A stretch of 32,053 nt of DNA from a virus. Shown here piece after piece: positions 28,351 to 32,045 of this stretch; positions within the stretch are counted from its first letter, which is position 1; each line of letters starts with the position of its first letter. The notes below the pieces were generated by a model, which ran no database searches, had not been told where the DNA came from, and saw nothing but the letters and a program-made list of their open reading frames with translations. Where the stretch lies: the UHGV virus genome UHGV-0252067. One strand, written 5' to 3'. Both the position numbers and the translations under genes were made by a program.

Positions 28351-28459
28351 AAAATCCCCCACCGGCGGCAACCGGCAGGGGATTGTAAGATAGCTTACCC
28401 AATGTGGATAAACCATCTGTCAGCAAGATGATTGTACCACCTTTGGGCAGGCTTGTCAA
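28349..28459 (-). ncRNA. Antisense small-RNA unit upstream of the integrase
   Basis: TTGACA-17-TACAAT with TG (28459-28431); 14-bp hairpin and 12-bp terminator hairpin plus T-run. All non-Watson-Crick pairs are G-U on the minus strand. Confidence 0.75.
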
Positions 28460-28485
28460 AGTGTGCCTTAAAGGAGGTATTTTTT

Positions 28486-29568
28486 ATGGGAAAACGAGTG
28501 AATACAGCTGTTTGGATGGAGAAACAAAGCCGCTGGCAGATCAAAGTCCAGAAAGATGGGGTGCGAAAGACCTTCTACTCCTCCAAGCCTGGCCGGACTG
28601 GACAGCGGGAAGCCAATGCCAAGGCGGACGCCTGGCTGGATGATGGCATCCAGGGCGGGAACCTGCGGGTGGAAGAGCTTTTTGACGCCTATGTGGATGA
28701 TCTGAAAAAGACAACCAGTCAATCCAACTGGCGTAAAATCGAATGGTATGGAAGAGTGTGGCTGAAACCTCAGATCGGGGCCAAACGGATTTCCCGAATA
28801 ACCGAGGATGATTTTCAGCAGCTCATCAACAAGATGTACCAGAAGGGCCTCTCCAAAAAGACCCTCCTCTGTTTCCGAGCAATGATTTCCCAGTTTTGTA
28901 AATACTGCCGTCGAATAAAAGCCACCACCCTAAGCCCAGAATTTTTGGAAATCCCCAAGGGGGCTCCCACAAAACCCAAGGCCATTCTCCAGCCGGAGCA
29001 CCTTTCTGTCCTGTTTTCATCTGACCAAACCACATACCGCGGGAAAACCGTCCACGATCCATTGGTTTACGCATACCGCTTTCAAGTCTTGACCGGCCTG
29101 CGCCCAGGCGAACTAATCGGGCTGCGATGGGATGATATAACGGGTGATGTAGTCCATATCCGTCGGTCTGTCAATGTACATGGGGAGACTACCAATGGGA
29201 AAAATGAAAATGCCCATCGCTCCTTCCTTTTGACCAAATCTGCCCAATCCGTATTGGATGACCAGCGTCGGAACTCTTTGTCCTTTGCCGGCCCGGTCTT
29301 CCCTATCCGGAAAGAGCCCTATTACTATGACCGATGGAAAACATATTGCAGAGCCAACAATATTCCACAAATTACTCCCTACGAGCTGCGCCACACCTTT
29401 GTTTCCATGGCCAAAAACCTGCCGGAAGGCCAAGTAAAAACTCTCGTAGGCCATTCTCAAAATATGGATACTCTGGGCACCTATTCCCATGAAATGCATA
29501 AGGATATGGAGCGGACCGCAGATGCCCTCGAATCTGTGATCCGTGACATTTTGGCCCCCAACGAATAA
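28486..29568 (+). CDS. int: Tyrosine integrase
   Basis: TGLRPGELIGLRWDD, GKNENAHR, YELRHTF, LVGHS, GTYSH catalytic motifs; AAGGAGGT RBS before ATG 28486. Confidence 0.95.
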   Translation: MGKRVNTAVWMEKQSRWQIKVQKDGVRKTFYSSKPGRTGQREANAKADAWLDDGIQGGNLRVEELFDAYVDDLKKTTSQSNWRKIEWYGRVWLKPQIGAKRISRITEDDFQQLINKMYQKGLSKKTLLCFRAMISQFCKYCRRIKATTLSPEFLEIPKGAPTKPKAILQPEHLSVLFSSDQTTYRGKTVHDPLVYAYRFQVLTGLRPGELIGLRWDDITGDVVHIRRSVNVHGETTNGKNENAHRSFLLTKSAQSVLDDQRRNSLSFAGPVFPIRKEPYYYDRWKTYCRANNIPQITPYELRHTFVSMAKNLPEGQVKTLVGHSQNMDTLGTYSHEMHKDMERTADALESVIRDILAPNE

Positions 29569-29964: not shown

Positions 29965-30001
29965 AAACTACCCCCGACCCTCCTAAATGGAGAGCCGGGG
30001 G
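29965..30001 (-). terminator. Terminator, copy 1 of the direct repeat
   Basis: AAACTACCCCCGACCCTCC-TAAAT-GGAGAGCCGGGGG, downstream of the RHH gene. Confidence 0.8.
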
Positions 30002-30007
30002 AAATTT

Positions 30008-30214
30008 CTATTTTCCTGGCGTTGCTTCCCGCCTCATGCGTTCTTCCACCGCCTTGCGGACATATTCATTCAGCGTCTCTCCCTGGGCTTCTGCGGCAGC
30101 TTTGATCAACGCTTTCATTCCTTTTGGAAAGAGAACCTCAACTCGATCTGAGTTTTTCGCACGGCTGGCCTGAACCTGTGCGGGATCGCTTTTTCTCTTT
30201 TTGGATTCTTCCAC
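30008..30214 (-). CDS. Ribbon-helix-helix (Arc/CopG-like) DNA-binding protein
   Basis: DRVEVLFPKGMKALIKAAAEAQGETLNEYVRKAVEERM; GGAGGTGA RBS; extended -10 TGTGCTATACT upstream. Confidence 0.85.
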   Translation of the reverse strand: MEESKKRKSDPAQVQASRAKNSDRVEVLFPKGMKALIKAAAEAQGETLNEYVRKAVEERMRREATPGK

Positions 30215-30254: not shown

Positions 30255-30362
30255 TAACCGGATATATACAAATCCCATATGAATAACCGGATATGTTTGT
30301 GCAAAATAGACCGAATATAATTCGCTAAAACGCTTGACATAACCGGTTATGTATGGTATAAT
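30255..30362 (+). promoter_or_regulatory. Consensus sigma-A promoter with three palindromic operators
   Basis: TTGACA(30334)-17-TATAAT(30357) with TG; perfect palindrome ACATAACCGGTTATGT (30337-30352); variants TAACCGGATAT at 30255 and 30284. Confidence 0.9.
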
Positions 30363-30388
30363 AAAATCAAAGGAAAGGAGGTGACACA

Positions 30389-30511
30389 GTGGATGACCTA
30401 AAAGATTGGCTAGAAATAGCAAAGGACTTGCTCGAAATCCTCGTCCTGGTTTTGACAGCCCACCAGCTGGTCAGAGGCAAGAAAAAGAGCAAGTCCAAGC
30501 GGAGGGGATAA
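30389..30511 (+). CDS. 40-aa amphipathic/hydrophobic peptide with basic tail (type I toxin-like; not in the ORF track)
   Basis: AAGGAGGTGA RBS; MDDLKDWLEIAKDLLEILVLVLTAHQLVRGKKKSKSKRRG*. Confidence 0.78.
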   Translation: MDDLKDWLEIAKDLLEILVLVLTAHQLVRGKKKSKSKRRG

Positions 30512-30568
30512 CCCTCCGCCCCCTCTTGGGGGTATTTCTAGTATACCACATCCACTGCCCAAATGAAA
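30482..30568 (-). ncRNA. Antisense RNA unit overlapping the 3' end of the peptide gene
   Basis: TTTCAT-17-TATACT with TG (30568-30540), followed by an 8-bp GCGGAGGG/CCCTCCGC hairpin and CTCTTTTTC. Confidence 0.6.
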
Positions 30569-30727
30569 GATTATTCTATCCGCATCCTATTGATCGGTTT
30601 GGTTCTGCTCAACCTATTGGATGGAGATTTTCAGAACCCCAGCACTTTGGATTGGGTCAAATTCTCTCTGCTGGCCCTTTGCCTGATTCTCTCGTTTTAT
30701 CGGAAAGGAGCAAAAAACAATGGATAA
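30563..30727 (+). CDS. 54-aa two-TM membrane protein (not in the ORF track)
   Basis: MKDYSIRILLIGLVLLNLLDGDFQNPSTLDWVKFSLLALCLILSFYRKGAKNNG*; its end overlaps the next start codon; no adjacent SD. Confidence 0.7.
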   Translation: MKDYSIRILLIGLVLLNLLDGDFQNPSTLDWVKFSLLALCLILSFYRKGAKNNG

Positions 30728-30924
30728 CTCCCCTTTTGACGGCCTCCTCTCCTTTGGGGAAGCCACCCAGCTGTGGGGCCTCCACGAAAGCACCTTACGC
30801 AAGGCTGTTGCCTATGGCAAGTTCCAGGAGGGCCAGGACATAAAAAAAATTTGGCAAACAATGGGTCATCACCCGCGCCGCCATGGAGCGGGTATACGGC
30901 CCCCAACCGGACCCCAAGGATTAA
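30720..30924 (+). pseudogene. Small HTH protein gene frameshifted in an A8 run
   Basis: SFGEATQLWGLHESTLRKAV HTH. Removing one A at 30842-30849 gives ..DIKKFGKQWVITRAAMERVYGPQPDPKD* (67 aa), ending exactly at the terminator. Confidence 0.78.
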
Positions 30925-30961
30925 AACTACCCCCGACCCTCCTATTATGGAGAGCCGGGGG
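30924..30961 (-). terminator. Terminator, copy 2 of the direct repeat (possibly bidirectional)
   Basis: AAACTACCCCCGACCCTCC-TATTAT-GGAGAGCCGGGGG between the convergent HTH and amidase genes. Confidence 0.8.
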
Positions 30962-30970
30962 TGTTTCTTT

Positions 30971-31618
30971 TTACTCCAGGGTGATGTGATAAATCCCGTA
31001 CTGCTTGAGCATCTCCCCCAGTTCCTGGATGGAGATGGTTTTGGTGTCGGGGTTGGGCTTTTTGTCCTGAAAAGGAATCCCCAGGCATTCCAGCACCGCT
31101 TTGGCATAGGCTTGTCCAAAGGCTTGCTGCTCTTGCTCTGTGTCGATAATCTCCCGGTCTTTGCTGTCCAGGAATGCCCCCTCACAGAGCACTGCCGGGC
31201 ACTGGTTCAGCCGCAGCCAGCCGAAGTAATCCTGGCCGGTGGCCATGAGGCGGGTCTTAATCCCCCGGCTGTTCTGGCCGATCTGCTTCACCTGGGCCTC
31301 CATAAGCCCGGCCAGTTTCCGGGACTGCTCCTTGTATGCGCCGGTCTGGACATACACCTCAAACCCATCCCCGCCCCCGGCGTTGTTGTGGATCTCCACC
31401 GCCAAATCCGGGGCAAAGGCTTTGGCTTCCCGAAGTTCCTCCTGGAGGGGATCGTTCTCATCTGCTGTCCGGGAGAGAGCCACCTCCACCCCATGCCGGG
31501 TGAGAATCTTGGCCATCTCCAGAGCCATAACCAGGTTGATGTCCTTCTCCTGCAATCCACCGGCCACCGCCCCAGGGTCTTTTCCCCCGTGGCCCACGCC
31601 GATGAACACTTTACTCAT
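30971..31618 (-). CDS. Endolysin, N-acetylmuramoyl-L-alanine amidase (Amidase_3)
   Basis: Zn-ligand motifs GHGGKDPGA, EKDINL, EIHNNA, PAVLCEGAFLD. Confidence 0.95.
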   Translation of the reverse strand: MSKVFIGVGHGGKDPGAVAGGLQEKDINLVMALEMAKILTRHGVEVALSRTADENDPLQEELREAKAFAPDLAVEIHNNAGGGDGFEVYVQTGAYKEQSRKLAGLMEAQVKQIGQNSRGIKTRLMATGQDYFGWLRLNQCPAVLCEGAFLDSKDREIIDTEQEQQAFGQAYAKAVLECLGIPFQDKKPNPDTKTISIQELGEMLKQYGIYHITLE

Positions 31619-32045
31619 GGGTGATATCCCCTTTCTCCTGCAATTGGGCCAGCACTGTCTTGAGGATGGGCGGGATGTTGTTCCCCAGCTTGCCGTAGTT
31701 TTCCAAAATGCTCAATAATTCCCTCGCTATGTAAAACCAGATTACCGCTGTGCGGATGTAAGGCTCCCCGGCTCCCAGGAGGCTGTCCAGGAGGACGCCT
31801 ACCCCCACCAGGCCCAGGACCAGCACCTTATTTACCCCGCCCCAGAACATCACCTGGCTGTCGGTGGTGTGGTTTTTGACGCTGGCTGCAAACCCCAGCA
31901 CAAAATCCAGGGCCATAAAGGCGATGAGGGCCTGGACCATCAGATCCCAGCCGCCCAGGAGCCAGTTTAGAGCCGTGCCCGCCGCCGCGAAGCAGCTGGA
32001 CACCCGGAGGCCGAAGCTCCCGTAGTTGTTGATTCCCAAATACAA
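31611..32045 (-). CDS. Holin (toxin secretion/phage lysis holin type)
   Basis: LGGWD..L..FMALDF..G, KVLV, ELLSILENYGKLG..IP..L..VLAQL motifs; overlaps the endolysin start. Confidence 0.92.
   Translation of the reverse strand: MYLGINNYGSFGLRVSSCFAAAGTALNWLLGGWDLMVQALIAFMALDFVLGFAASVKNHTTDSQVMFWGGVNKVLVLGLVGVGVLLDSLLGAGEPYIRTAVIWFYIARELLSILENYGKLGNNIPPILKTVLAQLQEKGDITHE

Follow-up and report, generated by a model that had tools for sequence, protein, structure and literature searches.

How is a conserved phage gene translated when it has no Shine-Dalgarno (SD) sequence of its own, and what is the role of a strand before its start codon that is complementary to the start codon of the gene upstream? 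The question is raised by a small cassette in the window, as the whole analysed stretch of 32,053 nt of the virus genome UHGV-0252067 is called here, which has the content of a temperate phage. A sequence-only reading of this locus had suggested that the two strands form a helix, here termed P1, through which the SD of the first gene (ORF1) could also serve the second (ORF2), such that one ribosome-binding site (RBS) would have two mutually exclusive products; plain sequestration of the toxin start codon was offered as a simpler explanation. The evidence presented here comprises the complementarity itself, its covariation in relatives, the missing SD of ORF2, the selection acting on ORF2 and the placement of the helix. 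By a modest balance of probability, P1 would both hide the start of ORF1 and lend its SD to ORF2, forming a split RBS that loops out a whole gene.

Organization of the cassette

The cassette sits between the integrase and the amidase/holin genes, flanked on both sides by a 37-nt direct repeat. The features of the region are as follows.

28432-29568: integrase, upstream flank of the cassette
29965..30001: left copy of the 37-nt direct repeat; GC hairpin, minus-strand terminator-like, 3' of the RHH gene
30008..30214, minus strand: RHH-like protein of 68 aa, divergent from the cassette, likely regulator
30255..30352: TAACCGGWTAT repeats, likely operators
30334..30362, plus strand: promoter TTGACA-17-TG-TATAAT, perfect sigma70/sigmaA-type (12/12)
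30374..30384, plus strand: SD1, extended Shine-Dalgarno AAAGGAGGTGA, -13.2 kcal/mol to the anti-SD motif
30387..30395, plus strand: P1 5' strand, across the GTG start of ORF1
30389..30511, plus strand: ORF1, 40 aa, hydrophobic core and basic C-terminus, putative type I toxin-like
30409..30418, plus strand: inner helix P1b, 5' strand, pairing with 30533-30542 in the predicted fold
30424..30433, plus strand: P2 5' strand, partner 30487-30496, covarying in the window's family
30480..30533, minus strand: predicted antisense RNA, placed by the promoter motif and by where SR6 is annotated in an SPbeta-like phage, both ends approximate
30499-30519, plus strand: hairpin P3, with the ORF1 stop inside the loop
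30520-30531, plus strand: hairpin P4, predicted fold
30540..30568, minus strand: antisense promoter motif, -10 TATACT (30545-30540) with TG extension and weak -35 TTTCAT
30549..30557, plus strand: P1 3' strand, ending 5 nt before the ORF2 ATG, inside the antisense promoter spacer
30563..30727, plus strand: ORF2, 54 aa, no SD, two hydrophobic stretches flanking a conserved DGDF
30720..30924, plus strand: ORF3, DNA-binding (HTH_59) with an SD of its own, frameshifted at the 8-A run 30842-30849
30924..30961: right copy of the 37-nt repeat; GC hairpin, minus-strand terminator-like, 3' of the amidase gene
30971-32045: amidase and holin, downstream flank of the cassette

The SD AAGGAGGTGA (30375-30384) lies upstream of the ORF1 GTG at 30389, and the antisense -35 TTTCAT overlaps the first codons of ORF2. 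The window thereby presents a two-ORF operon with an antisense promoter motif between the ORFs, aimed at the 3' end of ORF1. The two repeat copies (29965-30001 and 30924-30961) differ by 2 nt, located in the loop; such flanking repeats may be the mark of a unit gained or lost through recombination. The RHH-like protein has weak matches to TacA1, HicB and Arc, all below the cut-off, as is its match to NF041551 (E 1.6e-5).

The last TAACCGGWTAT repeat lies inside a palindrome (30337-30352), which occupies the promoter spacer and runs into the -35 box. A different palindrome occupies the -35/-10 spacer in each of the cassette promoters of L004, L008, L012, L015 and the window, and the third gene varies among cassettes as well (RHH_1, HTH_3, HTH_17, HTH_59 or unassigned). 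The two kinds of variation suggest a swappable repressor-operator pair carried on a type I-like cassette. Both frames of ORF3 match PF20038, and its frameshift at 30842-30849 may represent an assembly error, a true pseudogene or a slippage site. An Rfam scan of the window gave no family at gathering score except one tRNA, whose gene lies mid-phage (16418-16488, minus strand, 57 bits).

ORF1 and ORF2 as genes

Neither ORF matched a family in Pfam, PHROG or NCBIfam. ORF1 is a conserved small (<60 aa, here 40 aa) hydrophobic coding sequence, with a dN/dS of 0.36. For ORF2 the value is 0.28, and it is below 1 in all 20 usable pairs out of the 465 provided by the 31 members of the window's family, in whose alignment synonymous sites are mostly saturated and the DGDF motif and start position are kept. 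The alignment indicates that ORF2 is a real gene under purifying selection in this family; its product may act in immunity, as a second toxin or in exclusion. The predicted complex of the two proteins scored 0.02, which speaks neither way.

As had been seen from the sequence, ORF2 lacks an SD: its pairing with what we take to be the anti-SD motif is 0 kcal/mol, while -5 kcal/mol or better is reached by 21 of 26 other hand-picked ORFs in the window. The same absence is found in 58 of the 73 clusters of related loci described below, the other 15 of 73 having an SD of their own before ORF2; the third gene of the operon has one in 57 of 63 clusters, a count somewhat inflated by best-start choice. 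An SD-less gene under selection is unusual in these phages. The distance from the ORF1 stop to the ORF2 start codon (ATG2) is 31-103 nt across clusters, which exceeds the stop-to-start distance of about 20 nt at which E. coli and Haloferax all but lose reinitiation (PMC10666635).

P1 in the window and in its relatives

The strands CAGTGGATG (30387-30395) and CATCCACTG (30549-30557) are exact reverse complements over 9 nt, and the second stops 5 nt before the ORF2 ATG (30563); both statements of the sequence-only reading were thus borne out. P1 is present in the MFE and the centroid folds of 30369-30600 (z -5.2, 0/200 shuffles), with a mean pair probability of 0.996. In shuffled 200-nt stretches, a 9-bp match between any pair of sites >60 nt apart arises by chance in 1.6% of cases, and with positions fixed in 0.12%. 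The match alone is therefore only moderately rare, and the case for P1 depends on covariation in relatives.

An alignment search with ORF1 gave 33 loci. Further relatives were collected with DNA patterns composed of SD1 and the antisense -10, combined with either the promoter -10 or the first bases of ORF2, which left the variable helix bases unspecified and yielded at least several hundred more loci; these patterns dictate how strong SD1 is and which three bases follow the -10 box, so that neither feature carries evidential weight. A fixed rule applied to 440 sources produced 163 distinct modules of ORF1 plus antisense motif, of which 154 had a hydrophobic ORF2 of at least 18 aa and formed 73 clusters, the 9 without one being left out. 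The clusters are partly non-independent by descent, and the statistics ignore the tree. Across these relatives, ORF1 and ORF2 comprise many unrelated-looking peptide families, and two loci have named relatives, namely phages of Streptococcus and Bacillus. When 401 genomes of one class were searched by pattern, 10 matches came back, most of them a different thing from the cassette, and locus searches of viral contigs with ORF2 alone and with the RHH protein alone found nothing.

The ORF1 start region pairs with its own 26 bases before ATG2 at a mean of -11.5 kcal/mol over the 73 clusters, compared to -6.0 kcal/mol with permuted partners (z -21, 0/20,000 permutations), so that the covariation of the two 9-mers, proposed as a check by the sequence-only reading, is strongly upheld. 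Within the window's family the cognate duplex averages -11.1 and the permuted one -6.8 kcal/mol (27 loci, z -10), the strands themselves differing between loci, as in GGATATGG/CCATATCC of L007 and GTGGTTG/CAACCAC of L016. The cognate strand is the single best partner in just 14 of the 73 clusters. P2 covaries too: in 14 sequences, 90% of cells are paired and both bases have changed in 5 of the 10 pairs. P1 and the hiding of the ORF1 start codon are, with near certainty, conserved features.

Sequestration of the ORF1 start and position of the helix

In the predicted fold the start codon is the hidden part, the ORF1 GUG being paired at 1.00 in the full-length RNA and at 0.2 in the shortened one. 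Opening the RBS of ORF1 costs 4.4-4.6 kcal/mol when the RNA 3' end lies at 30512-30548, before the P1 3' strand, and 12.6-14.7 kcal/mol once that strand is included; opening the split site (SD1 and ATG2) costs 4.5-6.2 kcal/mol in the window. The loci in which ORF2 has its own SD often pair the ORF1 start at long range as well (median 0.77), from which sequestration emerges as the general function, to which sharing would be an addition.

Such observations suit the simpler reading, whereby P1 only shuts the toxin start, much as 5'-3' pairing does in other type I toxin mRNAs, and an open, A-rich stretch allows weak SD-less initiation at ORF2; A makes up 51% of the six bases preceding ATG2 (177/348). 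The helix would then lie near ATG2 because the antisense promoter spacer is the sole free space, and the usual -10-to-ATG distance of 15-19 nt alone leaves 5-10 nt after a helix of 7-12 bp. A 217-nt monocistronic yonT RNA is also known in the comparable SPbeta system (PMC5848175). As a full account this reading is nevertheless doubtful: start-codon sequestration itself holds, yet the position of the helix is left unexplained, and ORF2 would be an atypical gene for such phages, selected but SD-less.

The position of the helix is related to both the SD and the start codon of ORF2. The duplex has a median of -13.45 in the 58 SD-less clusters versus -3.9 in the 15 own-SD clusters (p 1.4e-5), a contrast that persists with 60 clusters (p 3e-4), with 44 clusters (p 2e-3) and under an SD-blind start rule (p 6e-5), and that could be in part a packing effect, since the 15-25 bases that an SD would use are also those of the P1 strand. 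When partners were sought everywhere downstream of the ORF1 stop and on into ORF2, the one pairing best with the ORF1 start stopped 3-13 nt before ATG2 in 39/58 SD-less versus 3/15 own-SD clusters; uniform placement would put 10% of best partners there. The distance from the antisense -10 to ATG2 ranges from 5 to 31 nt, and the helix end tracks ATG2 (rho 0.67, n 47). At loci where this distance is at least 21 nt, the helix shifts along with ATG2, a gap of 4-11 nt being kept in 12 of 13, which argues against sequestration alone. The helix thus follows the ORF2 start codon and not the antisense promoter. Its gap to ATG2 is 4-10 nt (10-90%), with a median 3' spacer of 7.

The SD itself is mostly spared, P1 covering the GGAGG core in just 6/53, whereas known type I toxin mRNAs are said to hide the SD by an anti-SD (PMC8594479). 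SD1 is often paired in predictions (median 0.51), mostly with ORF2 codons, yet no better than in synonymous randomisations (mean z +0.36), and a specific pairing of SD1 with ORF2 codons was rejected on these grounds. A conserved anti-SD directed against SD1 was likewise rejected, pairing above 0.5 being found for P3 in 0/58 and for the pre-ATG2 strand in 1/58.

Some individual loci vary in their arrangement. In L100 and L170, two of the 15 own-SD clusters, the start is probably a mis-picked internal ATG; at the first ATG neither has an SD, and the helix ends 8 and 10 nt upstream, respectively. L323 and L342 are SD-less ORF2 candidates without P1 near the chosen start, being either mis-assigned starts or exceptions. 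In L018, three cassettes share a 3-kb locus: ORF2 has an SD of its own and no P1 by ATG2 in two of them, and is SD-less with P1 in the third. CCTCC precedes ATG2 in only 2/73 clusters (L055 and L437), where that strand could pair with SD1. Longer 5' leaders, with two tandem SD-like motifs split by a small hairpin before ORF1, occur in L008, L017, L023, L024 and L026. The Streptococcus phage phiARI0923 (L038, 160-470) has an unannotated cassette of like layout downstream of the lysin, in which ORF2 has an SD-like GAGG.

Possible joint silencing and the predicted antisense RNA

P1 might also silence both genes at once, whereby a ribosome starting ORF1 would melt the helix and free the entry to ORF2, giving a joint output. 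A helix 5-10 nt upstream of an AUG falls inside the usual ribosome footprint. Joint silencing would also suit the report of YoyJ as a second, weak toxin (PMC5848175). However, the freed strand holds no SD (for most of the 58 clusters the value is 0 kcal/mol), P1 covers the ORF1 start but stops 4-10 nt (10-90%) short of ATG2, and 31-103 nt that include stable hairpins separate the genes, all of which renders such coupling improbable.

The antisense RNA is predicted from a promoter-like motif, an extended -10 on the minus strand (30540-30548). The motif is present in 14/14 aligned family loci, all found by protein search alone, and a terminator-like antisense end occurs in 27 of 73 clusters. The predicted target includes the P2 3' strand, P3 and P4 within the loop, and a rigid duplex in the loop lies outside the model of the folding program, which leaves some room for the earlier idea that this RNA opens P1 and switches the output from ORF2 to ORF1. 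This idea fared poorly, in that forcing 39 to 124 nt of the loop, including the target, to be single-stranded left the probability of P1 at 0.99. Furthermore, the annotated SR6 begins short of the helix 3' strand, and SR6 gives yonT mRNA a shorter half-life via RNase III, an antitoxin role (PMC5848175). A toggle is thus very unlikely; since P1 is unmoved, the antisense RNA would more probably act in the manner of SR6, as an antitoxin by which ORF1 RNA is destroyed.

Comparison with known systems

The SD region gave a weak blastn match (E 0.007-0.3), which led to yonT of SPbeta. The yonT-yoyJ/SR6 system (PMC5848175) resembles the window in its extended -10 promoter, very strong SD and GUG start, in the small hydrophobic ORF with a basic tail followed by a hairpin, and in the antisense promoter over the start of a second membrane ORF without a good RBS. 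It differs in that the window has as third gene an HTH protein in the same operon. Neither protein pair is homologous: NF047537 matches SPbeta YonT (E 4.5e-32) but not ORF1 (hhalign 4.9%), and YoyJ and ORF2 have an hhalign probability of 0.1%. The window cassette thus works like yonT-yoyJ/SR6 without being a member of it.

The same start-codon helix is predicted in SPbeta yonT-yoyJ, with 8 bp, and stops 9 nt short of yoyJ's third in-frame ATG. In phi3T the yonT start is likewise paired in the fold with an 8-bp strand, 9 nt before the ATG of the 64-aa YoyJ, a frame matched over its full length in 24/24 SPbeta-like records. The three in-frame yoyJ ATGs in SPbeta (L440, 339-590) give 83, 71 and 64 aa; the first, from which the 83-aa form would start, lies in another frame in phi3T (L037, 1432-1682), and the helix predicts the 64-aa form.

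Reif et al. (2018) gave yoyJ an upstream start, and the accessible part of their report does not describe the start-codon helix (PMC5848175); a 2019 review called the structure of yonT mRNA undetermined (PMC6562991). In the former report, yoyJ translation was barely over background and no product was obtained in vitro; according to its primer table, the yoyJ fusion contained the upstream ATG only and the yoyJ templates started after the yonT SD (PMC5848175). Faint translation in such constructs fits SD borrowing. Transformation nevertheless suffered from a yoyJ plasmid made with an upstream primer that leaves out the yonT SD (PMC5848175); this implies some YoyJ effect independent of a borrowed SD and fits borrowing less well.

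A helix between SD and AUG is tolerated in T4 genes 38 and 25, where a hairpin cuts the spacing from 22 to 5 and from 27 to 11 nt (PMC3014915), and E. coli thrS has a helix-bridged split RBS (PMC3936740). In these cases a local hairpin acts for a single gene, whereas the helix proposed here would span a loop of ~150 nt with a whole other gene, whose start codon forms one helix strand and whose SD is the borrowed one. As in a split RBS, no SD stands at normal spacing before the AUG in the window and in 58/73 clusters. The helix that would bridge SD and AUG is conserved by covariation; the summed spacer (SD1 to helix plus helix to ATG2) is 10 nt in the window, with a median of 12 (8-16, 10-90%), as compared to 5-11 in T4. 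The mRNAs of type I toxins (Hok, Fst, AapA and others; T1TAdb, PMC8594479) share 5'-3' long-distance pairing with the cassette but are said to hide the SD by an anti-SD, whereas here the start codon is hidden and the SD mostly spared; unlike in those mRNAs, the helix 3' strand is here the leader of a second gene.

In the dual start of the lambda S holin/antiholin, RNA structure steers one initiation region to either start codon; those starts lie two codons apart in one frame, and the present ones 174 nt apart in two genes. A search of the literature, largely open-access, found no report of one SD common to two genes through a long-range helix. The sources available to us thus suggest that helix-bridged RBSs (T4, thrS) and 5'-3' pairing in type I mRNAs are known, and that an SD shared by two genes via a long-range helix may be new.

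A proposed model for SD lending

In the proposed mechanism, P1 buries the ORF1 start codon and likely brings the free SD1 beside the SD-less ATG2, such that the full-length mRNA would likely yield ORF2 and not the presumed toxin ORF1. The 30S subunit would pair with SD1, the looped-out 153-nt domain would remain outside the mRNA channel, and 5-10 unpaired A-rich bases would guide the ORF2 AUG to the P site. The ORF1 product would arise only from nascent or 3'-shortened RNA without the P1 3' strand, and either nascent transcription or processing may be the source of such RNA; a sense-strand attenuator preceding the P1 3' strand was rejected as a conserved feature, being found in 15/73 clusters. 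The antisense RNA would clear the ORF1-competent RNA by duplex formation, as SR6 does on yonT, with P1 not opened.

Spacing stands against this proposal. The median summed spacer of 12 nt (10-90%: 8-16) compares with 7 nt for ORF1's own RBS, and the SPbeta core helix gives 17 nt, although a value like the normal SD distance is seen if the 3' spacer is taken by itself (median 7). Compensation between the two spacers was sought and rejected, both by rank correlation (rho +0.13, p 0.40) and by permutation of the sum variance, which was not below expectation (p 0.96). In addition, pairing of the start with the pre-ATG2 strand is below 0.5 in the whole-RNA fold of 10/58 SD-less clusters. The SD sharing first conceived for the window is hence supported in part: the helix replaces the SD of ORF2, keeps a fixed short gap to ATG2 and leaves SD1 mostly free, but the spacer is longer than in a normal RBS and shows no compensation. 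On balance, SD lending is the best single account of both the helix position and the missing SD of ORF2, and we lean towards it, if only slightly.

Whether the principle extends beyond the window is an evenly balanced matter: a widespread Firmicutes phage cassette may use one SD for two genes, the toxin and a membrane protein encoded downstream, through a helix that loops out the toxin ORF, with products mutually exclusive per mRNA, and yonT-yoyJ/SR6 may do likewise, YoyJ then being a 64-aa protein read from an overlooked ATG. If this is true, a bacterial ribosome combines the SD of one cistron with the start codon of the next, 180 nt away, and the start codon of the skipped gene serves as the hinge, giving an either-or output from a single binding site and a new initiation logic. 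It would also provide a reason for the SD-less look of some conserved Firmicutes genes, and would explain a puzzle in B. subtilis, where yoyJ translation is barely detectable in constructs without the yonT leader. Even if P1 acts by sequestration alone, the covarying helix would be the missing structural control for yonT, and would define a large, apparently unannotated family of two-peptide cassettes.
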